Origin: Escherichia coli
GTDB lineage: Bacteria > Pseudomonadota > Gammaproteobacteria > Enterobacterales > Enterobacteriaceae
Assembly (NCBI RefSeq): GCF_003334765.1
Contig: NZ_QOWT01000001.1
Strand: one strand, 5' to 3'
DNA length: 64,000 nucleotides
Below, one piece after another: positions 27,517 through 41,822 of this stretch. Each line of letters starts with the position of its first letter. The stretch's first letter is position 1. A model generated the notes under the pieces. The model saw nothing but the letters and a program-made list of their open reading frames with translations, ran no database searches and had not been told where the DNA came from. The position numbers were made by a program, and so were the translations under genes.

Positions 27517-29163
27517 TTATTCAATCTCTTCACAGACATCCTGCGTTAAACGCCGCATAATATCTTTTCTTAACAAAAACTTTTGTATTTTACCTGAGGT
27601 AGTTCGCGGTAGTTTTTCGATTACCACGATATGTTCAGGATATTTATATTTTGCGACCCGTTTACGGCTAAAAAAAGCCACTACCTCTTCCAGCGATAAT
27701 GAATGATGCGGCGCTTTCAGCACGACATAAGCGCATGATCGTTCACCTAAACGTTCATCGGACATTGCAACCACACAGGCATCGTGAATTTTAGGATGCT
27801 GCAATAAAATATCTTCCACTTCACGGCTGCTAATATTTTCGCCGCCGCGGACAATAATATCTTTTTTGCGTCCGGTAATTTTTATATAGCCAGCCTCATC
27901 CATACGGCAGAGATCGCCGCTGTAATACCAGCCTTCTTCATCCAGGGCACGGGCGGTTAATTCAGGTTCATCAAAATACCCCATAAACACATTGGGGCCA
28001 CGCGAGGCTTCTTCACCTTCGCAACCTGGCGGTAAGGTCTTGCGTGCGTCATCGACCACTTTAATCTCTACACCTGCGGCAGCGTAACCATCGGTGTGCA
28101 TAAAGCGCGACAAAGGATCATCGAGATTCACCACCGCATGCGGCGAACTTTCTGTGGAACCATAAACACTTAATAATTTAATGCCGCGCTGCTGGCATTC
28201 ACGCGCCACTTTTTTGGGGATTGTGGTTCCGCCGCAAAGAAAGAAACGCAGCGCTGAAAGGTCCGCGGGTTGTTTCTCTAGTACATTCAAAAGATCATAG
28301 ACAAACGGCGTTGCGCCGAGCATACAGGTGCAACGCTGCTGCTCAAGCAGCGCGAGACACGCATCAGGAGTGAAAATATCTAACAACACGCTGCGAGCGC
28401 CAATTAAGAATGGTGCCGTTACGCCATGCAGAAAGCCCGTTGCGTGACCAAGTGGCGCAGGCATCATAAAGACATCCTGCCAGGTCAGATTCAGTCGCGC
28501 GCAATAAGCCCGCTCACTGGCGAGAATATTGTTATGCGTTAGCATCACGCCCTTTGGCAGACCCTCGGTTCCGGAGGTAAACAGCACCGCAGCTAATTCA
28601 TCGCCGTGGGTCGTTATCGCCGTGGTCAGTGAGGTATTGTCGGCGATAATCTGACTTAATGAGAGGGAAGAGGTGGCGGGAGCCAGTTTGTCCACGCCGA
28701 CAATTTGTTGTAGTTGTGGAAGCTGATTTTGCAGCGGCAGGATTAAATCTACCGGACGCGTTTGTTTAAACAACGTCGGTGCAAAGAACATTTTTGCCTG
28801 ACACTTATTGAGCACCCACACCAGTTCTGCTTCCCGCCAGGAAGGCAACAGCGGCACGGAAACTGCACCGATTTTCAGGCAGGCAAGATAGATAACGGTA
28901 AATTCACACCAGCCAGGCAGTTGAAATGCGATGCGATCGCCTGATTCAATACCCTTCGCTAACATCCAGTTTGCCAGACAGCTCGCGGCGTGATCGAGCG
29001 CGCTATAGGTGTACGATGCACCATGATTATCGACCACGGCAATTTTGTCTGGCATCGCACGAGCGGTCTGCTGCCAGTAATCGGCCAGCGAAGCATCGCC
29101 CCATAACCCTTGCTGACGATACGCCGCACGACGTTGTTCGTTAAACGTTAATGTCACTTTCAT
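27517..29163 (-). CDS. fadK: Short-chain acyl-CoA synthetase (AMP-forming), anaerobic
   Basis: ORF track 27517..29217; start at ATG 29163 (MKVTLTFNEQRRAAY...), 548 aa; AMP-binding motif TSGTEGLPKG. Confidence 0.93.
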   Translation of the reverse strand: MKVTLTFNEQRRAAYRQQGLWGDASLADYWQQTARAMPDKIAVVDNHGASYTYSALDHAASCLANWMLAKGIESGDRIAFQLPGWCEFTVIYLACLKIGAVSVPLLPSWREAELVWVLNKCQAKMFFAPTLFKQTRPVDLILPLQNQLPQLQQIVGVDKLAPATSSLSLSQIIADNTSLTTAITTHGDELAAVLFTSGTEGLPKGVMLTHNNILASERAYCARLNLTWQDVFMMPAPLGHATGFLHGVTAPFLIGARSVLLDIFTPDACLALLEQQRCTCMLGATPFVYDLLNVLEKQPADLSALRFFLCGGTTIPKKVARECQQRGIKLLSVYGSTESSPHAVVNLDDPLSRFMHTDGYAAAGVEIKVVDDARKTLPPGCEGEEASRGPNVFMGYFDEPELTARALDEEGWYYSGDLCRMDEAGYIKITGRKKDIIVRGGENISSREVEDILLQHPKIHDACVVAMSDERLGERSCAYVVLKAPHHSLSLEEVVAFFSRKRVAKYKYPEHIVVIEKLPRTTSGKIQKFLLRKDIMRRLTQDVCEEIE

Positions 29164-29219
29164 GTTGGACTCTCGAAACAGAACATCAGGCCCGAGATGC
29201 GGGCCTGTGGGATGCATGA

Positions 29220-29513
29220 TTAGCCGTAGCGAAAATCAATACCGAAGGTGCCTGCGGGATATTGCCACTGTTCGAGAATAGTGTTACCGCACAGCACCCG
29301 ACAGGTGCCGCACTCCAGACAACCGGCGGAATCAAAATGAATGTTTCCTGCGTCATCCTGCTTATAAAGTCCGGCAGGGCAGGCTTTCATTAATTTATGG
29401 AATTCATTGATATCGGGATTTTCCGCCAGAATGATATGCGGGTGGCCCTCATCAACATGGAATTTATTGACGCCTAATTTGATGTCGACGTTAACCGTAG
29501 CGTTCTGGCTCAT
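29220..29513 (-). CDS. ydiT: FixX-like ferredoxin
   Basis: 97-aa ORF with CxxCxxC cluster (CLECGTCRVLC). Confidence 0.9.
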   Translation of the reverse strand: MSQNATVNVDIKLGVNKFHVDEGHPHIILAENPDINEFHKLMKACPAGLYKQDDAGNIHFDSAGCLECGTCRVLCGNTILEQWQYPAGTFGIDFRYG

Positions 29514-30799
29514 AGCGCGGTTGCTCCCTTAATGCCATCTTTCAGCAAGTTGATCAGCCCAATTTTCTTCGCATGTCCCATGATCATTTTTCGTACCGGC
29601 TGGTTTGGTTTGCCGTCGATGGTGAACATCTCGTTCATGATGTCGGCTACCATTCGTGGGTATTGGCTAAACAGGCGCGGGTTTTCCATCAGCGCCGGGA
29701 TCTTGCGAAAATGCTGCATATCACGCATGACGCAGCTTTGTTCCAGCTCACGTTTGTATTGCGCCAGACTGCTGGCGGAGAAATCCGCGCGTTCTTTGGC
29801 GGCGATCACCGTTGTGGCGGCAGCCTGAGCCGATGCAATGGCTAAATCCATGCCGCGGACCGTAAAACCCAAATTCAGGCAGAAGCCTGCGGCGTCACCA
29901 ACGATCATCACGCCCTCGTTAACCAGTTGCGGCACCATTGCCAGACCGCCTTCCGGCACCATATGCGCGGAATATTCAAGCAGTTTGCCGCCGCTAATCA
30001 GCGGGCGAATGGCGGGGTGTTGTTTAAAATCTTCCAGCATTTGCGGCACGCTTTTTTGCGCATGGGCGATATCACCCAATCCACAAACCAGCCCCAAGGA
30101 TATGGAATCCTTGTTGGTATAGAGAAATCCCCCGCCCATCAGGCCGTCAGAAGGGGAACCGGCAAACAGCCAGGCGGCACCTTCCTCGCCCGTAATATTA
30201 AAGCGATCGTTGATCTGTTCTGGTGTGAGGCCAATAACCTCTTTAACACCAACAGCGTAATGATGCGGATCGGAAGCGGGAACCATTCCCAGCGAGCGGC
30301 CAAGCATCGAGTTAACGCCATCAGCCAGAATCACCACATTCGCTTCGAGAATATCATCCCCAGCCTGCACGCCAGTGACCTTGTTTCCTTCACGAACCAG
30401 CGCGTCGACGCGAACGCCTGGGATAAACTGCGCGCCCGCCTGCTCGGCTTGTTCCATCAACCACGGGTCCAGACGATTACGCAATACGGTATAAGATGCG
30501 TGTTGCGGAACATCTGGCTGCTCGCGGTGAAAATCGAGGGTAACGGCGCTTTCTTCGGTTAAGAAGGAGATTTTCTCGCGTGTGACCTTGCGTTCTACCG
30601 GCGCTGATACTGCAAAGCCTGGAATGATTGCTTCAAGTGTGTGGGCATAAAGACGCCCGCCGGTCATGTTTTTACATCCGGCACTGTCGCCGCGTTCTAT
30701 CACCAGGACATCCAGCCCGGCTCGTGCCATGACCAGTGCGGCAACGCTACCAGCAACGCCCGCACCGACCACAATGGCATCAAATTTGTCATCCGACAT
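29510..30799 (-). CDS. ydiS: FixC-like FAD-dependent ETF-quinone oxidoreductase
   Basis: 429-aa ORF; N-terminal GAGVAG dinucleotide-binding motif; 4-nt overlap with ydiT. Confidence 0.92.
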   Translation of the reverse strand: MSDDKFDAIVVGAGVAGSVAALVMARAGLDVLVIERGDSAGCKNMTGGRLYAHTLEAIIPGFAVSAPVERKVTREKISFLTEESAVTLDFHREQPDVPQHASYTVLRNRLDPWLMEQAEQAGAQFIPGVRVDALVREGNKVTGVQAGDDILEANVVILADGVNSMLGRSLGMVPASDPHHYAVGVKEVIGLTPEQINDRFNITGEEGAAWLFAGSPSDGLMGGGFLYTNKDSISLGLVCGLGDIAHAQKSVPQMLEDFKQHPAIRPLISGGKLLEYSAHMVPEGGLAMVPQLVNEGVMIVGDAAGFCLNLGFTVRGMDLAIASAQAAATTVIAAKERADFSASSLAQYKRELEQSCVMRDMQHFRKIPALMENPRLFSQYPRMVADIMNEMFTIDGKPNQPVRKMIMGHAKKIGLINLLKDGIKGATAL

Positions 30800-30854
30800 G
30801 CGTTATGCTCCCTTCCCGCTGCGTTTACAGCGGGAGATGTGGTTGAAAGGGGAA

Positions 30855-31793
30855 TTAGCGGCTCAACTGGCTAATCAGGGCAGGGACGACTTTGTAGATA
30901 TCGCCCACCAGACCGTAGTCGGCATAGTTGAAGATTGGCGCATTTTTATCTTTATTGATGGCGACAATCACTTTTGCGCCGTTGCCGCCAACCATATGCT
31001 GGATCTGCCCGGAGATCCCCAGCGTCAGGTAGAGATCGGATTTCAGCAACACGCCGGAGACACCGATATAACGTTCACGCTCCATCCAGTTCTCGCCTTC
31101 GGCAATTGGACGTGAACAGCCGACTTCAGCATTCAGCACCGCCGCCAGTTCGTGGACCATTTTTAGGTCATCCTGCGCCGCCAGTCCACGACCGACGCCA
31201 ACCACACGTTTTGCTTTGCTCAGGTCCACGCTGCTTGCGGCTTTCGCACGGCGTTCGCGACAGAGAATTTCATGACGCGGAGCAACATAAGGTACCGTTT
31301 CTGTCGGGCACTGATGAGAGGTATCACTGGTGCACGGTTCCTGAACACCGGGTGCAAGGGTAATGATCGCCAGCGGGCTGTTGATCTTTTCCTGAGCGAA
31401 CGCTAACCCGCCATACATCCGGTGTTCGGCGCAAATGTGACCATCGACAATATCCACCGCCGTGGCATCGTTCACCAGCGCCGCATTCAGTTGCACACTT
31501 AACCGTGCTGCCAGCGCTTTACCACGTTTCGTCGCGGCCAACAGCAACATAGCGGGGTGTTTATCTTTCAGCAGGGCAGCAATGCTTTCGGCGTAATTTT
31601 CAGTGCGTTGCAGCGCGTCGTTTTGCGCAAGAACATAAAGACATTTTGGACCATAAGGCATAACTGCCTGCGCCTGGTCGGTATTTTGTACAATGGCATA
31701 CACCTGTTGGCCCCATTGCTGAGCGCCGCCAAACAGTTCAGCATAACGTTCAGGATTATCGCTAAAGACCCAGACGCTGTTTAATTGACTCAT
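30855..31793 (-). CDS. ydiR: Electron-transfer flavoprotein alpha-subunit homologue (FixB-like)
   Basis: 312-aa ORF. Confidence 0.92.
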   Translation of the reverse strand: MSQLNSVWVFSDNPERYAELFGGAQQWGQQVYAIVQNTDQAQAVMPYGPKCLYVLAQNDALQRTENYAESIAALLKDKHPAMLLLAATKRGKALAARLSVQLNAALVNDATAVDIVDGHICAEHRMYGGLAFAQEKINSPLAIITLAPGVQEPCTSDTSHQCPTETVPYVAPRHEILCRERRAKAASSVDLSKAKRVVGVGRGLAAQDDLKMVHELAAVLNAEVGCSRPIAEGENWMERERYIGVSGVLLKSDLYLTLGISGQIQHMVGGNGAKVIVAINKDKNAPIFNYADYGLVGDIYKVVPALISQLSR

Positions 31794-31812
31794 CGTTTCT
31801 TCTCCGTAGGCT

Positions 31813-32577
31813 TCAGTTCAGGGCTTTCTTCAGATGTTCCGCCAGCTCGGCAATGGCCTCCGGCGAATCGTTATCGATAATGATGTGCTTACGTTCTGTT
31901 TGCGGCGGTACGCGAATGCCGACCAGTTCAGCAAGTGGCGCGCTCTGGCTCCAGTCAATATCACTTGCCTGCCACTGATTTACCGGTTTTTTACCCGCGC
32001 CGAGAATGGCTTTCATCGAAGGAATGCGTGGCACGTTAATATCGGAGGTGACGCAGAGCACGGCTGGAACAGAGAGTTCAATAACTTCAACATCATCTTC
32101 AAGCGTGCGTTCAATCACCAGTGTATTGCCCTGACGCTGAATAGCACTCACTGCATTAATCACCGGAAGTTGCAGAATTTCTCCGACCAGCAAGCCAACC
32201 TGCTGGGCATAAAGGTCGCCGGAACCTTCACCAAAGATCAGTAAATCGAAGCCGATCTTTTCAATTGCTGCCGCCAGCGCTTTTGCGGTATCGAGAGGCA
32301 GTGCATGTTCAAGTTGCGCATCCTGCACCAAATACAGGCTGTGCGGCCCGCGGGATAGCACGTCTTTGCGCACTTTCGAGTTCTGCAACAATGAGCCGCC
32401 AACGGTCAGCGCGGCTATCTCATCGTCATCTGTTGCGAGCTGGCTTGCAGCTTCAATGGCATTGAGATCGAACTGGCTGATTTTGGCGTCGGCATTGTCG
32501 AAATTCAGGGTGTATTCTGGAGTGACAACAATGTCCTGTTCTTCAGGCACCAGCTTAAAGCAGGTTATTATTTTCAT
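31813..32577 (-). CDS. ydiQ: Electron-transfer flavoprotein beta-subunit homologue (FixA-like)
   Basis: ORF track 31813..32676; start at ATG 32577 (MKIITCFKLVPEEQD...), 254 aa. Confidence 0.92.
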   Translation of the reverse strand: MKIITCFKLVPEEQDIVVTPEYTLNFDNADAKISQFDLNAIEAASQLATDDDEIAALTVGGSLLQNSKVRKDVLSRGPHSLYLVQDAQLEHALPLDTAKALAAAIEKIGFDLLIFGEGSGDLYAQQVGLLVGEILQLPVINAVSAIQRQGNTLVIERTLEDDVEVIELSVPAVLCVTSDINVPRIPSMKAILGAGKKPVNQWQASDIDWSQSAPLAELVGIRVPPQTERKHIIIDNDSPEAIAELAEHLKKALN

Positions 32578-32892
32578 GATTTCTCCTGTGAGTCGCATAC
32601 GGAACCATCTCCGATGGAAGGTAAAAATGGCCTGAAAATAGTGTGCGATAGCGGTGCGGGGTTTTCGACGGAGCAAGCTGTTTTCCTTGCCAACAATCTT
32701 GCAAAAAAAATGCGATCGCTAAAACAAAAGTGCAATTTGCGGCAATATAGTTATTCCATGACCGTACAATCTTGCATTCAGTGTAAATAATCTTGTTTAG
32801 CTCTCGCTAAACGCGGTTGTATAACCGCAATACACGCCGTATTTTATCCGGCATATATTGTTTTTGCTTGCTCATGGAATAGGGAGGTTGTC

Positions 32893-33804
32893 ATGTATCA
32901 ACGCTGTTTTGATAACGCCAGTGAAACGCTGTTTGTCGCCGGTAAAACGCCACGGCTTTCACGTTTTGCATTTAGCGATGATCCAAAATGGGAGTCCGGA
33001 CATCACGTTCATGACAATGAAACCGAGTTGATTTACGTCAAGAAAGGGGTTGCAAGGTTTACCATCGATTCTTCGTTATATGTCGCACATGCGGATGACA
33101 TTGTGGTGATAGAACGCGGCAGGCTGCATGCGGTGGCCTCTGACGTTAACGATCCGGCAACGACGTGTACCTGTGCGCTGTACGGCTTTCAGTTTCAGGG
33201 GGCTGAGGAAAATCAGCTACTGCAACCGCATTCTTGTCCGGTAATTGCCGCGGGGCAGGGAAAAGAAGTCATAAAAACCTTATTTAATGAGCTAAGTGTG
33301 ATTTTGCCGCAAAGTAAAAATAGCCAAACATCTTCGTTATGGGATGCATTTGCCTATACGTTAGCCATTCTTTACTACGAAAATTTTAAAAATGCTTATC
33401 GTTCGGAGCAGGGGTATATTAAAAAAGATGTTCTGATAAAAGATATTCTTTTCTATCTGAATAATAATTATCGCGAAAAAATCACTTTAGAACAGTTATC
33501 GAAAAAATTTCGTGCCAGCGTCAGTTATATTTGCCATGAATTTACCAAAGAGTATCGTATTTCCCCTATTAACTATGTTATTCAACGGCGTATGACGGAA
33601 GCAAAATGGTCACTCACTAATACTGAATTATCACAGGCAGAGATCTCCTGGCGTGTGGGTTATGAAAATGTCGATCACTTTGCCAAACTGTTTTTGCGCC
33701 ATGTCGGTTGTTCGCCCAGCGATTACCGTAGACAATTTAAAAACTGTTTTGCGGAACAAGAAATCCTATCTGAATTTCCTCAACCGGTAAGTCTTGTTGG
33801 ATAA
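32893..33804 (+). CDS. ydiP: AraC-family transcriptional regulator (cupin N-domain plus HTH)
   Basis: 303-aa ORF; C-terminal AraC HTH (ISWRVGYENVDHFAKLFLRHVGCSPSDYRR). Confidence 0.9.
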   Translation: MYQRCFDNASETLFVAGKTPRLSRFAFSDDPKWESGHHVHDNETELIYVKKGVARFTIDSSLYVAHADDIVVIERGRLHAVASDVNDPATTCTCALYGFQFQGAEENQLLQPHSCPVIAAGQGKEVIKTLFNELSVILPQSKNSQTSSLWDAFAYTLAILYYENFKNAYRSEQGYIKKDVLIKDILFYLNNNYREKITLEQLSKKFRASVSYICHEFTKEYRISPINYVIQRRMTEAKWSLTNTELSQAEISWRVGYENVDHFAKLFLRHVGCSPSDYRRQFKNCFAEQEILSEFPQPVSLVG

Positions 33805-33846
33805 ATCTGGCGGCGCAGTTTGTTAAGAAGCTGCGCCGCCTGCAGA

Positions 33847-34998
33847 TTATTTGTTCTGATAGTCTTTCAGGATCTGCCGACCTGCTACGTAAATCATAAT
33901 TTCGTCTGTACCGCCGCCGATACGTTCACAACGGACATCACGCCAGAAGCGGGAGACGCGCGCCTCATCGGTATAGCCCAGACCGCCCATGATTTGAATC
34001 GCATCATCAATGACTTCCATTGCGGTACGTGCACAGTACAGTTTTGCCAGCGCCGCGCTGGTGCGCAGTGACTGATGCTGATCGGCTTGCCATGCCACTT
34101 TCAGCACCATGTTGCGCATGTTGTCGATCTTAATCGCCATCAGCGCCAGTTTTTCCTGGATCATCTGGTTATGACCAATGGGCTTACCAAAAGCGATACG
34201 TTGGTTGGCATAGCGGGCGGCATCTTCAAAGGCGCATTCGGCAAAGCCGGTGCTGCGCGCGGCGTTGATCAGGCGCTCCATCTCAAAGTTGTACATCACA
34301 TTGAGGAAACCCATTCCTTCTTCGCCCACCATGTCGCTCTCTTCAACCTCCACGTTGTCGAGATAGACTTCGCAGGTGCTGAGCATATGCCAGCCGATTT
34401 TATGCAGCGGGTTAATCTTAATGCCGGGCTTACTGGAGTCGACCCACCACAGGGTGAAGGCTTTTTTGGGATCTTTCGGTTGCGGATCGCGCGCCAGCAC
34501 CAGCATATACGGGTACTCTTTCGCACCGGTAATAAAGGTTTTTTGTCCGTTGATGTAGACCTTGCCGTTTTTACGCGTGTAAGTGGTAGTGGCACTGTTG
34601 TTATCTGAGCCAGCACCTGGTTCCGTCAACGCCAGGGCATAGGCGGGATCACCCGTTTCCAGGGTGCTCTCTGCCGTTTTACGTAGCTGCTCTGCAGAAC
34701 CGAAACGGCGCATACTGTGAATACATTGACCGTTGGTAATTAAAAATGCCGGAGCACCGCATTTTGACACTTCCATCAGCGCCAGCATTTGGGTGACGTA
34801 ATCCGCAGGGATACCACCAAATTCTTCCGGCACGCCAAGCATGGAAATACCGTTATCCGCCAGCGCCCGCATAAACTCACGCGGATATGTCCCGTTTTGA
34901 TCGCAGGTGCGGAAATACTCTTCCGGAAAGTTAGTCGTAATCAGTTCGCGAATACTGGCCAGCAGCAGTTCTTGTTCTTCAGTTAAAGAAAAATCCAT
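33847..34998 (-). CDS. ydiO: Acyl-CoA dehydrogenase
   Basis: ORF track 33847..35052; start at ATG 34998 (MDFSLTEEQELL...), 383 aa. Confidence 0.92.
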   Translation of the reverse strand: MDFSLTEEQELLLASIRELITTNFPEEYFRTCDQNGTYPREFMRALADNGISMLGVPEEFGGIPADYVTQMLALMEVSKCGAPAFLITNGQCIHSMRRFGSAEQLRKTAESTLETGDPAYALALTEPGAGSDNNSATTTYTRKNGKVYINGQKTFITGAKEYPYMLVLARDPQPKDPKKAFTLWWVDSSKPGIKINPLHKIGWHMLSTCEVYLDNVEVEESDMVGEEGMGFLNVMYNFEMERLINAARSTGFAECAFEDAARYANQRIAFGKPIGHNQMIQEKLALMAIKIDNMRNMVLKVAWQADQHQSLRTSAALAKLYCARTAMEVIDDAIQIMGGLGYTDEARVSRFWRDVRCERIGGGTDEIMIYVAGRQILKDYQNK

Positions 34999-35011
34999 CA
35001 TTATACTCCTG

Positions 35012-36607
35012 TTAATGAGCCGCTTCAGGCAGGACAAAACCCATCGCCGCATCGATAAATAATCTTTCGTCCATCAGTTTGAGTTCTGGCGAAATCACTG
35101 GGGTGAAATCCATTTTGTCGAGAATATCTTTTTGTAAATCGACGCCAGGGGCGATTTCGATTAAATGCAGGCCGTCTTCTTTCAGCGTGAATACTGCGCG
35201 CTCAGTGATATAACGAACATCCAGCCCTCGCTCGAGAGCGATTTTTCCGCTGAAAGTAATTTCCGGTAGTTCCCGAATAAATTTCTTCACCCGTCCTTCC
35301 TGGACGATATTTAATTTGCCGTCGGTAATTTCTGTTTTTAAACTGCCCGCAGTTAATGTGCCGCAGAAAATGATTTTCTTCGAAGTGGCACTGATATCAA
35401 TAAATCCACCGGTGCCCATGATTTTACCATTGAATTTATGCACGCCGACGTTACCGTGCTGGTCGACTTCAGCAAAACTCAAATAACAAACATCCAGACC
35501 GCCACCGTGATAAAAATCAAACTGGGACGTCATATCCAGAATGGCACGGGTATTCACGTTCGCGCCAAAGGCGATCCCCTGTGAAGTAATTCCGCCAATC
35601 GGACCTGTTTCTACCGTCAGAATAAAGTCATCAGCACAACCTTCTTCTCGGGCGACCAGGCCAATGCCGTCAGCAATACCGACGCCGACATTCCCCACCG
35701 CGCCTTTACGCATTTCGAATAATGCGCGCCGCGCAACTAATTTACGTTGGTTTAGGGGCAGGCTAAGTTTGGTACTGTCATCAAGGGTGAAGTCACCAGA
35801 AATAAAGCGGTTAACCGGTGCACCGCCATACAGTTGGGTTTGATCCGGATCGACCACCACAATATCCACCAGATAACCCGGAATACGGACAGATTTAGGA
35901 TGCAGCGTGGCTTTCTTAACCATTTTCTGCACCTGCATCATCACAATACCGCCGTTATTGTGCACCGCCTGGGCAATAACCAATGCGTCGAGATACATCA
36001 CCTCATCTTCAAAAGTGGCGTAGCCTTCACTGTCGCAGGTGGTAGCGCGAATGAAGGCAATATCTGGCGCAATCGCTTTGTAATAGAGATATTCTTTGTT
36101 ATCAAACTCGACCAGTTTAATCAGGTCTTCTTTAGTGACTTCATTCAGTTTGCCGCCTTGCTGGCGTGGATCGACAAATGTCCCGATGCCAATATCACTA
36201 ATAATACCAGGCTGGTGGGCTGCGGCGGCGCGTAAGGTTTGTGTAAGTACACCTTGTGGGTAGTTATAAGCAATAATTTTATTTTGTTCTGCGAGTTCAG
36301 AAATACGCGGCGATTGTCCCCAGTGACCACATAATGCCCATTTCACCAGACCTTCTTGCGCCAGAGGACTAATACCACGGTCGGCGCGATCGCCAAGCCC
36401 TGTTGGACTAATAATCGATAAATTACGTGGTGTTTGAGTCTGTTTATATTTATCAGCAAGAGCAGTAATTAACGTGGTGGCTTCCAGAATACCGCCTCCA
36501 GCGCCTAACACACAAAGTGTTGCTTCGTCGGGAATATAATTCACCGCTTCCTGTGCCGACAGGACCGGCACTCGTCCATTAATACGAGGTGGTTTTACAG
36601 GTTTCAT
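35012..36607 (-). CDS. ydiF: Family I CoA-transferase (fused alpha/beta; acetate/short-chain acyl-CoA)
   Basis: 531-aa ORF. Confidence 0.92.
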   Translation of the reverse strand: MKPVKPPRINGRVPVLSAQEAVNYIPDEATLCVLGAGGGILEATTLITALADKYKQTQTPRNLSIISPTGLGDRADRGISPLAQEGLVKWALCGHWGQSPRISELAEQNKIIAYNYPQGVLTQTLRAAAAHQPGIISDIGIGTFVDPRQQGGKLNEVTKEDLIKLVEFDNKEYLYYKAIAPDIAFIRATTCDSEGYATFEDEVMYLDALVIAQAVHNNGGIVMMQVQKMVKKATLHPKSVRIPGYLVDIVVVDPDQTQLYGGAPVNRFISGDFTLDDSTKLSLPLNQRKLVARRALFEMRKGAVGNVGVGIADGIGLVAREEGCADDFILTVETGPIGGITSQGIAFGANVNTRAILDMTSQFDFYHGGGLDVCYLSFAEVDQHGNVGVHKFNGKIMGTGGFIDISATSKKIIFCGTLTAGSLKTEITDGKLNIVQEGRVKKFIRELPEITFSGKIALERGLDVRYITERAVFTLKEDGLHLIEIAPGVDLQKDILDKMDFTPVISPELKLMDERLFIDAAMGFVLPEAAH

Positions 36608-36749
36608 TGTTAATTCCTGATTCAGATGTGATTTTCCCTACGCCAAATGGAGAATTAGCGCACAGAGACTCACGAAATATTTTTATTAAATACGATTGAA
36701 TATATTTTTTAGTTCGGCGGGGAGGGTGTTCCCGCCGAAATATTATTGC

Positions 36750-37508
36750 TTATGCCTGGTGTAAAATAGTTAATACCGTGCGCAAATCATTTACCGAGAT
36801 TTGCCCTGGCGCAGACGCTTTTTTTACCGCACCAAAAGTTGCCGCCGAGCCAAATACTTCACCAGCCAGACGAGAAATTACGCCAGTTTTTGCCATCGAC
36901 ATCGTGATAATTGGACGATCGGCATACTGCTCCTGCATCTCCAGGGTCGCGGCAAGCAACGTCAGCACATCGCTGGTACTTTGCGGCATCAGCGCAATCT
37001 TAGGAATATCGGCGTCGAAGGATTGCATTTTGCGCAGACGGGCAATGATTTCTTCGGCTTCCGGCGTTTTATGGAAGTCATGGTTGGACATGACTACTTT
37101 CACATCATGCGCGTGGGCGTAGGCGACGGTTTCTTTAACCTGATCATCACCGGTAAATAACTCCAGATCGATCATATCAACCAGGCCGCTGTCGATGGCT
37201 GCACGATTGAGTGCAATATAAGCCTCGGTGGAAATCGCCTGCTCGCCGCCTTCTTTGGCACTGCGGAAGGTAAACAGCAGCGGTTTTTCTGGCATGGTCT
37301 CACGGAGAATTTTTGCTGCCGCCATGACAGACTCCACATTGGAGAGGTCGGCATAGTGGTCCACACGCCATTCCAGAATATCAAAGTCCGCTTCACGATA
37401 GGCGAGAGCTTCGGATTTCACGCTGGCGATATCTTTCGCCATCAGCGAGACGATGATTTTAGGTGCGCCCGTACCAATGACGAGATCTTTTACAGTTACG
37501 GTTTTCAT
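36750..37508 (-). CDS. aroD: Type I 3-dehydroquinate dehydratase
   Basis: 252-aa [30 protein letters not shown]. Confidence 0.97.
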
Positions 37509-37538
37509 TTTTTACCCTTTCTGCACGCGGTCAGCCTG

Positions 37539-38405
37539 TCAGGCACCGAACCCCATGACCTGTTTAACATATTCCAGAGGGAAATCTTTGCCAGTCCATA
37601 ATGTGAACTGTTCAGCCCCTTGCCACAACAACATGCCGTATCCATCAATCGTTTTGCAACCAGCTTGTTGCGCCTGCTGCAATAACTTCGTCATATGCGG
37701 GTTATACACGCATTCAGTGACCAGAAGTCCCGGATGTAACAGACTGATATCATTAACCAATGATTCATTCTCAAGGGGTTTCATACCCACTTTTGTGCCA
37801 TTGGTTAAAATGTCGGCGGAAGCCAGGGCTTCAGCAAAGGCTTGCTGATCGGCGAGATCGGTGACCGTGACGACACAATCGGTGTTTTCATTAACCCGCT
37901 GCGCGAAGGCGAGGGCTTTATCGAAGAACTCATCCCGACGGTTAAAGAGTTTAATTTCTTTTAAACCTTCAATTGCCCCCTGCGCGCCAATTGCCGTTGA
38001 GGCACCACCGGCCCCTAACAGCACCATCGTTTTGCCTTTGATATCAAAACCGCTCTCTTTAATGGCGCGAATATGGCCCGTGCCGTCGGTGTTATAGCCA
38101 CGCAGATAGCCATCATCATTAACGATGGTGTTGATGGCCCCCACCAGTTTGGCAGCTGGTGTTAATTCATCAACATATTCACACGCCAGTTGTTTGTTCG
38201 GCATCGATACACCAGTTCCGCGCATTTTGAGGGCTTTTAATCCTTCAATTGCTCCAGGAAAGCTATCGTTATCCACTTCGAAGGCCATATAGGTAAATGG
38301 CAATCCCGCTTTTTCTAAGGCTTTATTCTGCATTTCGGGCGATAAACTGTGGCGGATAGGATAGGCCATCAACCCAATCAATTCGTATTTTGCGGTAACA
38401 TCCAT
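37539..38405 (-). CDS. ydiB: Quinate/shikimate dehydrogenase (NAD(P))
   Basis: 288-aa ORF; AroE-like fold with GAGGAS Rossmann motif. Confidence 0.95.
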
Positions 38406-38416
38406 AATTAACTCCT

Positions 38417-39682
38417 TTAACCTCTATGCTTAATTGTGTTTAACCGGGTGCAAAATTTACGCTCGCCAAACCGCACATCATTTTCAGGAATAATGAAAAC
38501 GCGGTAATAGCGGATAAAAACAATAATTGCGGTAATCAGGGCCAGCAGCGCGAAAGTAAAATCGAGAACAATGATATATTGCAGGCCGATGTTCGACAGA
38601 TAACCGGTAATCAGTGGAATAACAAAGTTAGCCAGTCCACCCATCATCATATAAATACTGGTGACTTTGGCTTTGCTTTTGGGAAAAAACTCTGACATGA
38701 CCGAAACGCCGAGCTGTAAAATGCCGCCAGCTGCTGAGAAACCGATAACAAAGGCTCCGGCATTGCACACCAGTGGAGAAGGGTACAGGTAGATAATGGC
38801 TGCTGTTATTGTTGCCAGTGCAGAGTTAAATACATTAGCCCAGATGGGCCGGACCATTTTTTTCAGTAGTGCGGCAAAAATAAAGACACAGACCAACGAG
38901 CCCATACTGTAATAAGAGATGGTTTTTAATGCCTCAGCTTCTGACATACCAGCAAAAGCCATCGCATATTTGGGCATCCACACCACAATCACATAAAAGG
39001 TCGAGAATGCGGCTACACCGAACAGTACCGATGAAACACCTTCCAGCCAGACTAACGGTTTGCTGTTCATTTGCGGTAATTCATTAGTTACGCTGGCGTC
39101 CACCAACTGGCTGGGGAATTTGCTTTTCAACAGCATCAGCGTGATCAGTACAAATAGAATACCCGGAATAATCAGCCCATAGCCGTACCAGATATTATTG
39201 AGCAACATATAGCTCACCAGCATTGGGTAGAACATTTGCCCAAATGACACCATCGCTTTAACCAGTATGACCGCCGAACCAGAGGCTTTCGGAAAGCATT
39301 CCATGAGCGCGGGGTAGCCACCCGTATCCAGCGCTGAGTTAGCGATACCTACGCACACTGCCAGACCGTAGGCGAGAGTTAAATTCGGGCAAGCGGGAAT
39401 ACCAAAGAAGAATAGCAGATACATTATTACTGCCATTAATATCACCGCCCGACGACCAAACTTATCGGAGATCACACCGAAGAATAAAATACTGATCAAT
39501 CGCCCCAAACCGATACCGGAAATTAAGTAGGCAATGCCCGCGTTGTCAGTGGAAAACTTTTCCGCCAGAGATGACATATTTTGGGCAAGCGTAATAACAC
39601 TAATGCCGTGCAGGAAGTAGCTGAAGTAAATACAAAGAACAGCCAGGATAAATGGCGTGCTGAAAGCCTTATTTTGAGACAT
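38417..39682 (-). CDS. ydiN: MFS transporter
   Basis: ORF track 38417..39688 begins at GTG; first ATG at 39682 (MSQNKAF...), 421 aa, 12-TM-like. Confidence 0.88.
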
Positions 39683-39908
39683 TTTCACAGCTCCTTGCTG
39701 AAAGATAATTTCGTTACCGTACGTATTGTTCTCCGACGGTTTACATAATTACTATACTGAAGATGATTTTCCCTGGGTACATGGCATAAAGTTTATGTTT
39801 CCAGGAATATTGCATGTCATAGTTTGTTTTTGATCGCGATTTTCCTTAGTTAGCGCAGAAAGAGTTATTTATCCGTAAGATCTTGCATGACCTGAAAAGA
39901 ATATTGCA

Positions 39909-41123
39909 TTACCCACCCGGAGCGACATTTTCCTTTAGCGAGTGATGCCGCGTTTTTTTGCGGCTGCGTAAGCCGATAAACAGTGCCAGTAAAAAACCGA
40001 TGGCAGCGATGGCGGTATCGAACCACATAATATCGGCAATACTTCTTTGGGACAGATGAGCCGTAATCAACGGAATAGTAAAGGTCGCAATACTGCCCGC
40101 ACTGTAATAGATCCCTGTAGCTTTACCTTTAGCGTAAGGGAAACGTTCAGCCATTAACGTCAGGCCAATTTGCACAACACCTCCAGCAGAGGTAAAACCA
40201 ATGACAAAAGCAAATATTATCACCACATAAAATGTGGGATGCAGGCAGACGGTAAACAGAGCAATAAATGAGATAAAGGTGTACAGCATCAGTAATGTTG
40301 TTGGGCGAACGGTATTACGAATGAGTGGAGCGGTAATAAATACACAAAGCAGCGAACCCACGGTGTAGATACTGAGTAGTTTGATCGACATAGTGTATGA
40401 CATGCCTGCAACAAATTGTCCGTACTGTGCCAGCCACTGGCTAACCAGATAAAACGTTGCCATTGAGATATAGCCATATAAGGTATAACTGGCTAAATCG
40501 ATAATTGAACAGCGATGTTCCGTAGAGCTGGTGGTTTTCTTTATGACAGGTAAGCGACGACCCGGATGGGGTGGGAACGTACAACGGTATAAAAACAGAG
40601 CGTTAATAAACATAATGCCTGCAGCAATCATAAAGGACCAACCGAACCACAGTTCAGCCCACACTAACAGGCTAATGATTAGCGGTAATAAAAATTGTCC
40701 GCTGGAAACAAATGCTTTAATTAAAATATTGGCTGTCCCAGGTGAGCGTGGAAAAGCTTCCATCAAACTGGGATAAGTGCCTGCATCGAGAAAACTGTTT
40801 GCCATTCCCGCCAGAAAGCCAAAAACATAAGCGATAATGATGTTATTGGTCTGCAGGATGCCAAAAAAGAAGGCCATATAGCAGCACATCCCGAGCATGA
40901 TAAAAGGGCGGCGACCAAAGCGATCGGATAATAATCCTGCAAAAAGCAAGACACTTAATCGACCAATGCCCAGCGATGAGATAACTATCGAGACACCCGC
41001 GGCATTAGTCTGCCAAAGTGTCTCCAGCGAGGCCATATTCAGGCTCATCAAAAGGACGCCCATACCATGCACCAGGTAATTAAAATACAACCCAAGTGCG
41101 GTAGGGAAATAGGGATTTTTCAT
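39909..41123 (-). CDS. ydiM: MFS transporter
   Basis: 404-aa polytopic ORF. Confidence 0.9.
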   Translation of the reverse strand: MKNPYFPTALGLYFNYLVHGMGVLLMSLNMASLETLWQTNAAGVSIVISSLGIGRLSVLLFAGLLSDRFGRRPFIMLGMCCYMAFFFGILQTNNIIIAYVFGFLAGMANSFLDAGTYPSLMEAFPRSPGTANILIKAFVSSGQFLLPLIISLLVWAELWFGWSFMIAAGIMFINALFLYRCTFPPHPGRRLPVIKKTTSSTEHRCSIIDLASYTLYGYISMATFYLVSQWLAQYGQFVAGMSYTMSIKLLSIYTVGSLLCVFITAPLIRNTVRPTTLLMLYTFISFIALFTVCLHPTFYVVIIFAFVIGFTSAGGVVQIGLTLMAERFPYAKGKATGIYYSAGSIATFTIPLITAHLSQRSIADIMWFDTAIAAIGFLLALFIGLRSRKKTRHHSLKENVAPGG

Positions 41124-41222: not shown

Positions 41223-41579
41223 TTAACAAAGCCGCTCCAGATCGTGTGCATATAATTCAGCAGCTACCGATTGATAGATCTTCCAGTCAATAAAATTGCC
41301 ATCAGGGTAGACTCGTTGAAATGCGGTTAAGTCGGGGAAAAAACGCATGGTGTTGTTGCCGATGCGGTTATTTATTTTCTCTATGATGGCATGAAGATGT
41401 TTTTTTCTTTGCTGACGCATAGCCAACAGTTGCTCGACTACACGATCAGGAATGGCACACTTGCCATTTTCCCACTGACGCCAGCTTTCACTGTCACCGG
41501 TCTGGGCAATCCAGGTCGCGCATTCATCAATAGTCATGGCAAAAATATGGCGGAGTGCCTGGAGTTCATAAGCGTTCAT
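41223..41579 (-). CDS. ydiL: Uncharacterised protein YdiL
   Basis: ORF track 41223..41606; start at ATG 41579 (MNAYELQALRHIF...), 118 aa. Confidence 0.8.
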   Translation of the reverse strand: MNAYELQALRHIFAMTIDECATWIAQTGDSESWRQWENGKCAIPDRVVEQLLAMRQQRKKHLHAIIEKINNRIGNNTMRFFPDLTAFQRVYPDGNFIDWKIYQSVAAELYAHDLERLC

Positions 41580-41716
41580 CGTGTAATGGCTGCATGAAAT
41601 AAACAATAAAATATAAATAACATTATCAGCCTGCTGACGGCTTGAAGAGAGTCACAGTATCTTGTGCAACATTATTGGAAAGAGTGAGGGGCGAGGTAGC
41701 GAAGCGGAAAAATGTT

Positions 41717-41822
41717 AAAAAAAAGCCCATCGTGGGAGATGGGCAAAGACTACACACAGCAATTCGTTGTTTCACTCAGGGGATTTCCATGCTTATAAAT
41801 CAATATGTTGATTTATAACCGT
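41717..41822 (-). ncRNA. rprA: RprA small regulatory RNA (RpoS translational activator)
   Basis: Reverse complement reads ACGGTTATAAATCAACATATTGATTTATAAGCATGGAAATCCCCTGAGTGAAACAACGAATTGCTGTGTGTAGTCTTTGCCCATCTCCCACGATGGGCTTTTTTTT, recognised as RprA including its terminator. Confidence 0.9.

Follow-up and report, generated by a model that had tools for sequence, protein, structure and literature searches.

Conserved linkage of the Escherichia coli ydiO, ydiQRST and fadK genes to quinate/shikimate genes suggests a possible CoA-dependent reduction of shikimate

The Escherichia coli genes fadK, ydiT, ydiS, ydiR, ydiQ, ydiO and ydiF (minus strand) and the regulator gene ydiP (plus strand) occupy positions 27517-36607 of the 64,000-nucleotide stretch of DNA analyzed here (the window; contig NZ_QOWT01000001.1). 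Comparison with related clusters led us to propose that this interval makes up the right-hand half of a longer and horizontally mobile unit, ydiN-ydiB-aroD-ydiF-ydiO/ydiP/ydiQRST-fadK, spanning 27517-39682 and perhaps extending to the end of ydiM at 41123. It appears likely that the system is functionally tied to the transporter YdiN, the quinate/shikimate dehydrogenase YdiB and the 3-dehydroquinate dehydratase AroD. By analogy with the cai/fix system, the unit may carry out a CoA-dependent reduction of the shikimate enoate, driven by quinol through an electron-transfer flavoprotein (ETF) and with quinate entering via YdiB and AroD, a reading that we hold to be about evenly balanced between right and wrong. 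A first-pass annotation of the window had described a ydiP-centred unit ending at ydiF, with a substrate not evident from the sequence. Neither description was borne out, since conserved linkage in relatives carries the unit on into aroD-ydiB-ydiN (36750-39682) and the conserved gene context points to quinate/shikimate.

In E. coli, aroD (36750..37508; annotated type I 3-dehydroquinate dehydratase, TIGR01093), ydiB (37539..38405; NAD(P)-dependent quinate/shikimate dehydrogenase, NF009390, 669.9 bits) and ydiN (38417..39682; major facilitator superfamily (MFS) transporter) lie immediately upstream of ydiF on the same minus strand, followed by ydiM (39909..41123, minus strand), annotated as a second MFS transporter gene, whose membership of the unit is uncertain. 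Synteny was analyzed on contigs encoding twelve YdiO relatives closer than CaiA, which were collected through exact-protein look-ups and not as a systematic species survey, and all proteins of the E. coli unit were mapped onto these contigs by tblastn. In Group A (YdiO 77-88% identical) every locus also encoded YdiF (70-85%), YdiQ and YdiR (44-69%), a YdiN-like MFS transporter (46-71%) and an AroD-like type I dehydroquinase (65-71%), and all loci except that of contig L010 encoded a YdiB orthologue (75-80% identical to YdiB, compared with 26-28% to AroE).

The gene order of E. coli, with ydiP and fadK included, was found in L011 (G+C 52%). In L012, L014 and L015 (G+C 57-58.5%) ydiT-S-R-Q was divergent from ydiN-ydiB-aroD-ydiF-ydiO, while L008 (G+C 42%) had a minus-strand araC gene and then ydiN-ydiF-ydiO-ydiQ-ydiR-ydiB-aroD-ydiS-ydiT. 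The order was ydiN-ydiF-ydiO-ydiQ-ydiR-aroD-ydiS-ydiT-fadK in L010 (G+C 43%), and araC-MFS-MFS-ydiF-ydiO-ydiQ-ydiR-ydiB-aroD in L018 (G+C 44%), there followed by genes for a PanE/ApbA-family reductase, a MaoC dehydratase and glyoxalase-like proteins. The linkage with ydiN, ydiB and aroD is therefore conserved across five gene orders, that of E. coli included, and at least two bacterial classes; ydiST lay within the block in four of the five orders and a YdiB orthologue was present in four. In L008 and L010 the quinate/shikimate genes stood between the ETF genes and those of the ETF:quinone oxidoreductase. An adjacency of aroD and ydiB due to chance or to a purely biosynthetic role was rejected, as the YdiB orthologues are not AroE and as, in three of the orders, ydiB and/or aroD come directly after the ETF genes and point the same way. 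Orthologues of ydiP (45-58% identity) were found in L008 and L011. L010 (19460-20686) and L018 each have another MFS gene, whose product is about 38-40% identical to YdiM, and L008 has an additional MFS gene beyond araC. The add-on genes of L018 (15197-17125) hint that some organisms may process the ring further at the CoA level.

Exact-sequence look-up identified L012 as Sutterella wadsworthensis, its YdiB-like (WP_046446382.1) and YdiF-like proteins being exact entries of this species; L014 and L015 are from other Sutterella. Despite belonging to the Betaproteobacteria, these bacteria carry YdiN, YdiB, AroD, YdiF and YdiO homologues 69-84% identical to those of E. coli, suggesting transfer of the whole block. 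Slightly below even, and hence tentatively, we suggest that E. coli, Salmonella and Sutterella share a transferred quinate/shikimate respiration module (ydiN-ydiB-aroD-ydiF-ydiO with ydiQRST and in some cases fadK) which, by way of CoA thioesters and with electrons from quinol, makes saturated cyclohexane carboxylates out of hydroaromatic acids of the diet, the fatty-acid and butyrate phenotypes being side activities of FadK. YdiB, YdiO, YdiF, YdiQRST and YdiP would thereby all gain a physiological role. Of two further YdiO homologues, P0027 (74%) in L009 stands alone, with no ETF or CoA genes, and is uninformative, and P0035 in L017 is a truncated copy with the flanking context of L012.

The more distant Group B (YdiO 60-68%) comprised Desulfovibrio desulfuricans L003 (7271-17537), Pectobacteriaceae L005 (230-11149), L007 (4504-15054), which is an extra island of Escherichia albertii between ung and trxC, and the metagenome contig L013 (1181-17232). 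These loci keep YdiO-like and ETF genes and, except for L007, ETF:quinone oxidoreductase and ligase genes. On the other hand, YdiF, YdiN, YdiB and AroD are replaced: a different MFS transporter, variably one of the anion:cation-symporter type, is encoded in all four and a family III (CaiB/Frc-like) CoA-transferase in all except L005. All except L013 encode another, distantly related acyl-CoA dehydrogenase, for which acryloyl-CoA reductase was the top-scoring model, though below cut-off. In addition L007 encodes a PcaK/MhpT-like aromatic-acid symporter and a desulfoferrodoxin-like protein, and L003 and L013 an MBL-fold hydrolase and a dCache chemoreceptor. The redox core is thus portable, a reductase/dehydrogenase module which the various clusters would link to the import of various acids.

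The two ends of the proposed unit also share candidate control elements. The sequence TGCAA[G/T]AT, in coding-strand reading, occurs three times upstream of ydiQ, in the divergent ydiQ-ydiP control region (32578..32892), and three times in the region upstream of ydiN (39683..39908), with an identical spacing of 21+73 bp. The ydiQ-side TGCAAGAT boxes are at 32696-32703 and 32769-32776 (minus strand), with a degenerate AACAAGAT at 32790-32797; the ydiN-side boxes are at 39807-39814, 39880-39887 and 39901-39908 (minus strand). Their distances to the start codon are similar (116/189/210 bp for ydiQ and 125/198/219 bp for ydiN), and the promoter-proximal box has the extended consensus TGCAAGATnnTTnGnAAnnAAAAC. 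In the 64-kb window the motif AATMTTGCA was counted 6 times, where 2.1 occurrences would be expected, and four of the six lie within the ydiQ and ydiN upstream regions. Pairs spaced by 21 bp were also found in L011, upstream of ydiN and in the ydiP-ydiQ intergenic region, and in the divergent ydiQ/ydiN intergenic region of S. wadsworthensis L012, and none appeared in 500 shuffles of each of these three sequences (E. coli, L011 and L012).

A separation of two helical turns between direct repeats is typical of AraC-type activators. YdiP (303 aa; 32893..33804, plus strand) is an AraC/XylS-family regulator with a cupin domain, matching Cupin_2/AraC_binding (PF07883/PF02311) at the N-terminal residues 28-144 and, for its C-terminal double helix-turn-helix, HTH_18 (PF12833) at residues 202-281, and from the box arrangement we infer that YdiP, as the predicted box-binding protein, may control both the ydiN and ydiQ sides. 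No FNR, CRP, ArcA or FadR consensus site was found in four intergenic regions at up to 2, 2, 4 and 5 mismatches, respectively, and generic scans for sigma-70 promoters and terminators gave no excess of hits compared with shuffled sequences. Membership of the fad regulon was not supported, the lack of a FadR-like site being a weak negative. The L012 box pair (4237, 4258) lies at about the place that corresponds in L014 to a 185-aa open reading frame (ORF; 4162-4719) without family match, which separates the divergent genes ydiQ and ydiN. In L012 no ORF was called there; that of L014 may not be a real gene, or it may be what the boxes serve.

Comparison of the Ydi proteins with those of the K-12 cai/fix locus gave full-length identity of 48% between YdiO (383 aa; 33847..34998; NF008997, 786.9 bits) and the acyl-CoA dehydrogenase/enoyl-CoA reductase CaiA. 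The ETF small (beta) subunit YdiQ (254 aa; 31813..32577) was 56% identical to FixA, the large (alpha) subunit YdiR (312 aa; 30855..31793; NF008884, 689 bits) 45% to FixB, the ETF:quinone oxidoreductase flavoprotein YdiS (429 aa; 29510..30799) 61% to FixC and the ferredoxin YdiT (97 aa; 29220..29513) 62% to FixX, all five genes being on the minus strand. The AMP-forming ligase FadK was 29% identical to CaiC. On the other hand, the pairwise comparison of YdiF with CaiB showed no similarity, YdiF being a family I and CaiB a family III CoA-transferase. The resemblance to fixABCX and cai noted in the first-pass annotation is accordingly true paralogy for YdiO, YdiQ, YdiR, YdiS and YdiT, and does not extend to YdiF; on these sequence data, the CoA-handling pair of ligase and CoA-transferase is analogous, but not homologous, to that of cai. 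YdiS had as best solved relative the FixC of Thermotoga maritima (7koe_C, 239.6 bits) and its orthologues carry PF21162 and PF26311; YdiS and YdiT together provide the FixC-type flavoprotein and FixX-type ferredoxin of FixABCX/EtfABCX complexes, YdiT with 143.9 bits against the FixX model NF011993, under the cut-off of 166. The parts for an ETF-coupled enoyl-CoA reductase or acyl-CoA dehydrogenase are present, as had been suggested, and this is the natural reading of the paralogy of YdiO and YdiQRST.

Both E. coli systems have divergent operons and anaerobic use, and the closest characterized paralogue is annotated in the reductive sense, as 'crotonobetainyl-CoA reductase'. They differ in the family of the CoA-transferase, in the regulator (CaiF in cai/fix, the AraC-type YdiP in ydi), in the substrate, which is a different and putative one in ydi, and in the BCCT antiporter and crotonase dehydratase present only in cai. 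No homologue of a CaiD-type crotonase dehydratase or of a CaiT-type BCCT antiporter was found within 27517-41123, and we propose AroD with YdiB, and the MFS proteins YdiN/YdiM, as functional substitutes for CaiD and CaiT.

The first-pass annotation had further considered the system possibly electron-bifurcating. YdiQR would then hold a second FAD and oxidize NADH, one electron going to enoyl-CoA via YdiO or to quinone via YdiST while ferredoxin or flavodoxin received the second, which is the scheme of Bcd/EtfAB (Bcd, butyryl-CoA dehydrogenase), CarCDE and the FixABCX of nitrogen fixers. This would agree with the closeness of YdiS to FixC of the bifurcating T. maritima EtfABCX, with the four-subunit FixABCX architecture, shown to bifurcate in Azotobacter (PMC5861303), and with the best solved matches of YdiQ, which are bifurcating small subunits (6fah_B, 84 bits; 5ol2_B; 7qh2_B), although its scores against canonical ETFs are just modestly lower (51-53 bits). 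The motifs linked to the second FAD argue otherwise. DGDTAQ is the motif in the small subunits of 216 bifurcating ETFs (Thr 100%, Gly 95%) and DDDxNQ in those of 449 canonical ETFs (Asn 98%), and an ETF variant with T94A/T97A (numbering of the R. palustris enzyme) binds AMP in place of the second FAD (PMC8958531); T94 and T97 appear to map onto the ADTWATS segment. In HMMER alignments to solved structures, YdiQ had G-D-L-Y-A-Q-Q opposite the I-D-G-D-T-A-Q of CarD, C. difficile EtfB and LctB, and ALPLDTAK, with Pro at the first Thr position, opposite their GADTWATS. ALPLDTAK resembles the segments of canonical proteins at this place, EPLAVAK (Paracoccus) and GPLQVAR (human ETF).

The family-specific motif of YdiQ, GEGSGDLYAQQVG, belongs to a pattern GEGS(G/A/S)DLYAQQ essentially invariant in 12 YdiQ/FixA-type sequences (one has DLYSQQ), and (A/L)LPxxTA was found in YdiQ and all 11 relatives examined where bifurcating ETFs carry ADTWATS. 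The DDDxNQ motif of canonical, group 1 ETFs is also absent from YdiQ. Since YdiQ fits neither the bifurcating nor the canonical signature, the type formed by YdiQ and E. coli FixA appears as a separate ETF group, one that is probably non-bifurcating. YdiR lacks an N-terminal ferredoxin domain, its residue 6 aligning to residue 70 of CarE. As for YdiO, whose comparison with bifurcating butyryl-CoA dehydrogenases had been suggested, its scores against Bcd/CarC (159-176 bits) were no better than those against many dehydrogenases of the ordinary kind, which reached 202 bits. Menaquinol has a potential of about -70 mV and the crotonyl-CoA couple of about -10 mV (PMC5861303), so electron flow from menaquinol to enoyl-CoA is downhill and the reduction requires no bifurcation. 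Taken together, we consider bifurcation by YdiQR highly improbable.

Shikimate is 3,4,5-trihydroxy-cyclohex-1-ene-1-carboxylate, and its CoA thioester is therefore an alpha,beta-enoyl-CoA. The substrate, the reductive direction and the electron path from quinol are what we infer in the proposed cycle, in which the MFS protein YdiN (perhaps also YdiM) would take up quinate or shikimate and export the product. YdiB and AroD would convert quinate via 3-dehydroquinate and 3-dehydroshikimate to shikimate, neutrally for the NAD pool, as the counterpart of the CaiD dehydration acting on the free acid. FadK would prime the cycle by forming the CoA thioester with ATP, and YdiF would sustain it by moving CoA from the product to the incoming substrate. 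Electrons would pass from the quinol pool through YdiS/YdiT and the YdiQ/YdiR flavoprotein to YdiO, which would reduce the double bond of shikimoyl-CoA, and the saturated acid ('hydroshikimate') would be released and then exported. YdiP would sense the substrate or an intermediate and activate the ydiN- and ydiQ-side promoters via the 21-bp-spaced TGCAA[G/T]AT boxes, and energy would be conserved at the quinone-reducing dehydrogenases.

Shikimate has been reported as a growth-stimulating electron acceptor of S. wadsworthensis and Eggerthella lenta, its enoate being reduced, and was detected in faeces (bioRxiv 10.1101/2022.12.26.521950). That study considered only flavin reductases, did not mention acyl-CoA/ETF systems and did not include E. 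coli. In a shikimate-overproducing E. coli, ydiQ, ydiR, ydiS and ydiT were among about 40-50 genes raised between growth phases (PMC4015609), and ydiB, aroD and ydiN were found to be co-induced (PMC4585142).

Features of YdiO, FadK and YdiF bear on the nature of the acyl group. In the alignment YdiO has G361-G362-G363-T where 5lnx, 2dvl and 4iv6 carry the catalytic Glu in YEGT or GEGT, and its Glu at E241 (FEMERL) aligns with that of 2pg0 (QQERL), at the position used in isovaleryl-CoA dehydrogenase (IVD) and long-chain acyl-CoA dehydrogenase (LCAD). CaiA shares this pattern, with Glu in FDHERF and Gly at the Glu position of medium-chain acyl-CoA dehydrogenase (MCAD). Butyryl-CoA and MCAD-type dehydrogenases carry the YEGT Glu, and the IVD/LCAD-type placement goes with bulky or branched acyl groups. 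YdiO thus lacks the C-terminal YEGT Glu of straight-chain dehydrogenases of the Bcd, MCAD or short-chain (SCAD) type, and the Glu placement gives a weak hint that a straight C4 chain is not its intended substrate. For FadK, the second-best NCBIfam model was cyclohexanecarboxylate-CoA ligase (416.8 bits, under its cut-off), and the nearest solved structures were salicylate- and 2,3-dihydroxybenzoate-AMP ligases (266-212 bits), which are aryl-acid adenylating enzymes; no structure named fatty-acyl-CoA synthetase outranked them among its solved matches. YdiO matched cyclohexane-1-carbonyl-CoA dehydrogenase models below their cut-offs. YdiF, whose halves match TIGR02429 and TIGR02428, is a fused alpha/beta protein of the ScoA/ScoB fold, as expected for family I.

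Matches of this kind would also suit oxidative use or salvage of alicyclic acids (hydroshikimate, cyclohexanecarboxylate derivatives) from other gut microbes. In that case FadK or YdiF would activate the acid and YdiO, with ETF and quinone, would dehydrogenate it to cyclohex-1-ene-carbonyl-CoA, the products entering aromatic amino acid synthesis via YdiB/AroD or being hydrated and ring-opened by beta-oxidation enzymes. The linkage to ydiN, ydiB and aroD applies equally here, and ETF with ETF:quinone oxidoreductase, to which YdiS also matches (2gmh), is the classical oxidative arrangement. This reading gives YdiB and AroD no coherent joint role, as the path ends at quinate or needs a single YdiB step; the E. 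coli block has no ring-hydrating or ring-cleaving genes, the closest paralogous system, cai/fix, runs reductively, and the phenotype reported for S. wadsworthensis is shikimate reduction. We therefore regard oxidation of alicyclic acids as improbable.

The current literature views the genes as serving anaerobic beta-oxidation of short- and medium-chain fatty acids, and the interpretation of the first-pass annotation (cai/fix likeness and anaerobic beta-oxidation) is already published. According to this view acids from butyrate to octanoate are activated by FadK, YdiO takes the place of FadE as acyl-CoA dehydrogenase, YdiF shuttles CoA among short acids and FadIJ complete the cycle, with electrons passing via YdiQR and YdiST to quinone and then to nitrate, tetrathionate or similar acceptors, the adjacency of aroD-ydiB-ydiN being incidental. 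Nuccio and Baumler (PMC3967523) list ydiFO, ydiQRST and fadHIJK under anaerobic beta-oxidation and ydiP as its regulator. Campbell 2003, as cited in PMC9530198 and PMC6249985, described ydiD/fadK-dependent anaerobic growth on fatty acids with nitrate, and Bronner 2018, as cited in the same two papers, described ydiQRSTD/ydiD-dependent anaerobic use of butyrate in S. Typhimurium, the operon being lost in S. Typhi. PMC3896788 cites FadK as a short-chain acyl-CoA synthetase under anaerobic regulation. The RefSeq names, medium-chain fatty-acid--CoA ligase for FadK and acyl CoA:acetate/3-ketoacid CoA transferase for YdiF, agree with this view.

On the other hand, YdiO is only 'suggested' as an alternative FadE in PMC3896788, and ydiO serves as a y-ome example of a gene with 'limited functional information' (PMC6412132). 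Beta-oxidation leaves the retention of YdiB, AroD and YdiN through five rearrangements unexplained, as well as the operator boxes shared by ydiN and ydiQ. YdiO is without the YEGT Glu found in most of its closest solved relatives, its nearest characterized paralogue is a reductase, and none of the four intergenic regions had a FadR-like site. Moreover, oxidation of an acyl-CoA (about -10 mV) with menaquinone (about -70 mV) would be uphill. For these reasons we find beta-oxidation a rather unlikely primary role of the unit; it is the main rival to shikimate reduction.

Counted in favour of shikimate reduction are the linkage, the S. wadsworthensis phenotype, the cai/fix reductase, the shared boxes, the hints from FadK and YdiO, the transcriptomes and the lack of FadR, FNR, CRP and ArcA sites. 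Several points weigh against it. The ydiD-dependent fatty-acid and butyrate use and the anaerobic regulation of FadK described above are real evidence for beta-oxidation; these published experiments concern fatty acids, mainly through fadK, and a ligase of broad specificity would fit them too. Reduction of shikimate or quinate by E. coli, or action of a Ydi protein on these acids, is not documented by any experiment. The many flavin reductases of S. wadsworthensis could equally explain its shikimate phenotype, and the transcriptome of PMC4015609 had no non-producer control. A single transferred block may be the ancestor of all the related loci, in which case the five gene orders are not fully independent samples, and aroD, which is also the biosynthetic dehydroquinase of E. 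coli, could owe its position to history. L018 has no ydiS or ydiT (FixCX-like) genes within 10 kb.

The first-pass annotation had made its reading depend on co-regulation of the gene sets flanking ydiP, and the boxes shared by ydiN and ydiQ speak for co-regulation, with one gap: the search found no such box upstream of ydiF. In addition, the aroD stop codon is followed at once by a very stable hairpin (36713..36739; 11-bp stem, 7 GC pairs), which ends 105 bp short of ydiF. This hairpin has an A-run, not a T-run, beside it on the transcribed strand and could be a terminator for the opposite strand, an mRNA-stabilizing or processing element, or a sequence resembling repetitive extragenic palindromes (REP). 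Because there is no ydiF box and the hairpin after aroD is strong, co-transcription of ydiF-ydiO with ydiN-ydiB-aroD is unproven.

Besides cai/fix, the proposed reduction of shikimoyl-CoA has parallels in other known systems. In the caffeate respiration system CarABCDE a ligase does the priming, a CoA-transferase keeps the cycle going, and an enoyl-CoA reductase resembling acyl-CoA dehydrogenases, served by a dedicated ETF, reduces a plant-derived unsaturated acid. Its logic is like that of the proposed ydi cycle in ligase, CoA-transferase and enoyl-CoA reductase with ETF, and CarC, CarD and CarE of Acetobacterium woodii (6fah) are among the solved relatives of the Ydi proteins. The Car ETF, however, bifurcates electrons and carries a ferredoxin domain at the N terminus of the large subunit, whereas YdiQ lacks the motifs and YdiR the domain, and ydi adds FixCX-like quinone-linked subunits. 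The bifurcating FixABCX/EtfABCX complexes of Azotobacter vinelandii and T. maritima (7KOE) have the four-subunit composition of YdiQRST but differ from it in the DGDTAQ/ADTWATS motifs, and the ydi ETF is linked to an acyl-CoA dehydrogenase gene, not to nitrogenase or ferredoxin genes. The fadI-fadJ-fadK set of E. coli and Salmonella has fadK in common with ydi and both are anaerobically regulated; the ydi block has no hydratase, dehydrogenase or thiolase, and its conserved partners are quinate/shikimate genes, not fad genes.

For the ansatrienin-type biosynthesis of cyclohexanecarboxyl-CoA we know of no ETF or quinone link. In this pathway, going by the title of Skyrud 2020 cited in PMC13304725, shikimate is converted by an AMP-ligase to shikimoyl-CoA, on which a FAD enzyme then acts. 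It is an actinomycete biosynthesis with NAD(P)H reductases, and it is likened here by description. The UrdA-like, shikimate-induced flavin reductase of E. lenta would have the same proposed net reaction, from the shikimate enoate to hydroshikimate as a respiratory sink in the gut; it is a single flavin reductase acting on the free acid, while the ydi route would be cytoplasmic and CoA-dependent.

The eight genes were found intact on their strands in the ORF list and in the RefSeq annotation of an identical E. coli chromosome, which confirmed the gene identities and strands of the first-pass annotation. The interval runs from the last base of the fadK stop codon to the first base of ydiF, and the longest ORFs of fadK (to 29217), ydiQ (to 32676) and ydiO (to 35052) extend upstream of the RefSeq starts. 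FadK, YdiS, YdiR, YdiQ and YdiO passed the curated NCBIfam cut-off of their own equivalog or subfamily model, and YdiP and YdiF have no NCBIfam model of their own. FadK (YdiD; 548 aa; 27517..29163, minus strand) scored 1086.9 bits against NF004758 in agreement with RefSeq, and YdiF (531 aa; 35012..36607, minus strand) is identical to PDB 2AHU/2AHV/2AHW (1188 bits). The segment 27000-37000 was 100% identical to several E. coli chromosomes and matched in 5426/5426 complete E. coli assemblies (at least 80% covered in 5349), so the locus is part of the core genome and not a strain-specific island.

Other features were noted within and beside the block. The 56 bp that separate ydiT from fadK contain a G+C-rich, terminator-like hairpin (29187..29207, minus strand; 8-bp stem, 7 GC pairs), which falls within the longer alternative fadK ORF and is a possible attenuator that would uncouple fadK from ydiQRST. 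The convergent genes ydiP and ydiO are 42 bp apart, with a weak terminator-like match (33831..33845; 5-bp stem) in between. Within fadK, on the opposite strand, GCGGCACGGAAACTGCA at 28851-28867 (plus strand) is a sequence reported as an intragenic sigma-54 binding site (PMC4591121), and genomic SELEX (selection of bound DNA fragments) found an FlhDC-bound fragment within ydiP, upstream of ydiQRST-fadK (PMC9962212). Beyond ydiM lies ydiL (41223-41579), a small YdiL/Aca2-like helix-turn-helix gene with a counterpart in L011 (19716-20072) beyond the fadK-like gene, and a ydiL-like gene may travel with the unit. The small RNA gene rprA follows ydiL at about 41715-41822 (coordinates mapped from an identical chromosome).

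The locus, its annotation, the anaerobic beta-oxidation view and metabolic-engineering models that use ydiO/ydiQRST for reversed beta-oxidation have been described before. The longer unit and the proposal of a hydroaromatic substrate appear to be new: no paper tying the ydi genes to shikimate, or proposing shikimate/quinate respiration via this link, was found in a search that had most subscription journals outside its reach. If the hypothesis is true, the ydi system would be a new member of the class of CoA-dependent enoate respiration (cai/fix, car), with a distinct type of ETF. The limited straight-chain functional evidence for YdiO would have a suggested reason, and the ydiQRSTD story of Salmonella, with the loss of the operon in typhoidal serovars and the use of butyrate, would be reinterpreted. 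Gut microbes have long been observed to convert quinate and shikimate towards cyclohexanecarboxylate and hippurate precursors, and the unit would supply genes for this conversion. Several 'y' genes (ydiB, ydiF, ydiN, ydiO, ydiP and ydiQRST) may share a single pathway. Its substrate, a metabolite that is abundant in plants and microbes and present in faeces, would be a new organic electron acceptor for anaerobic respiration in enterobacteria.

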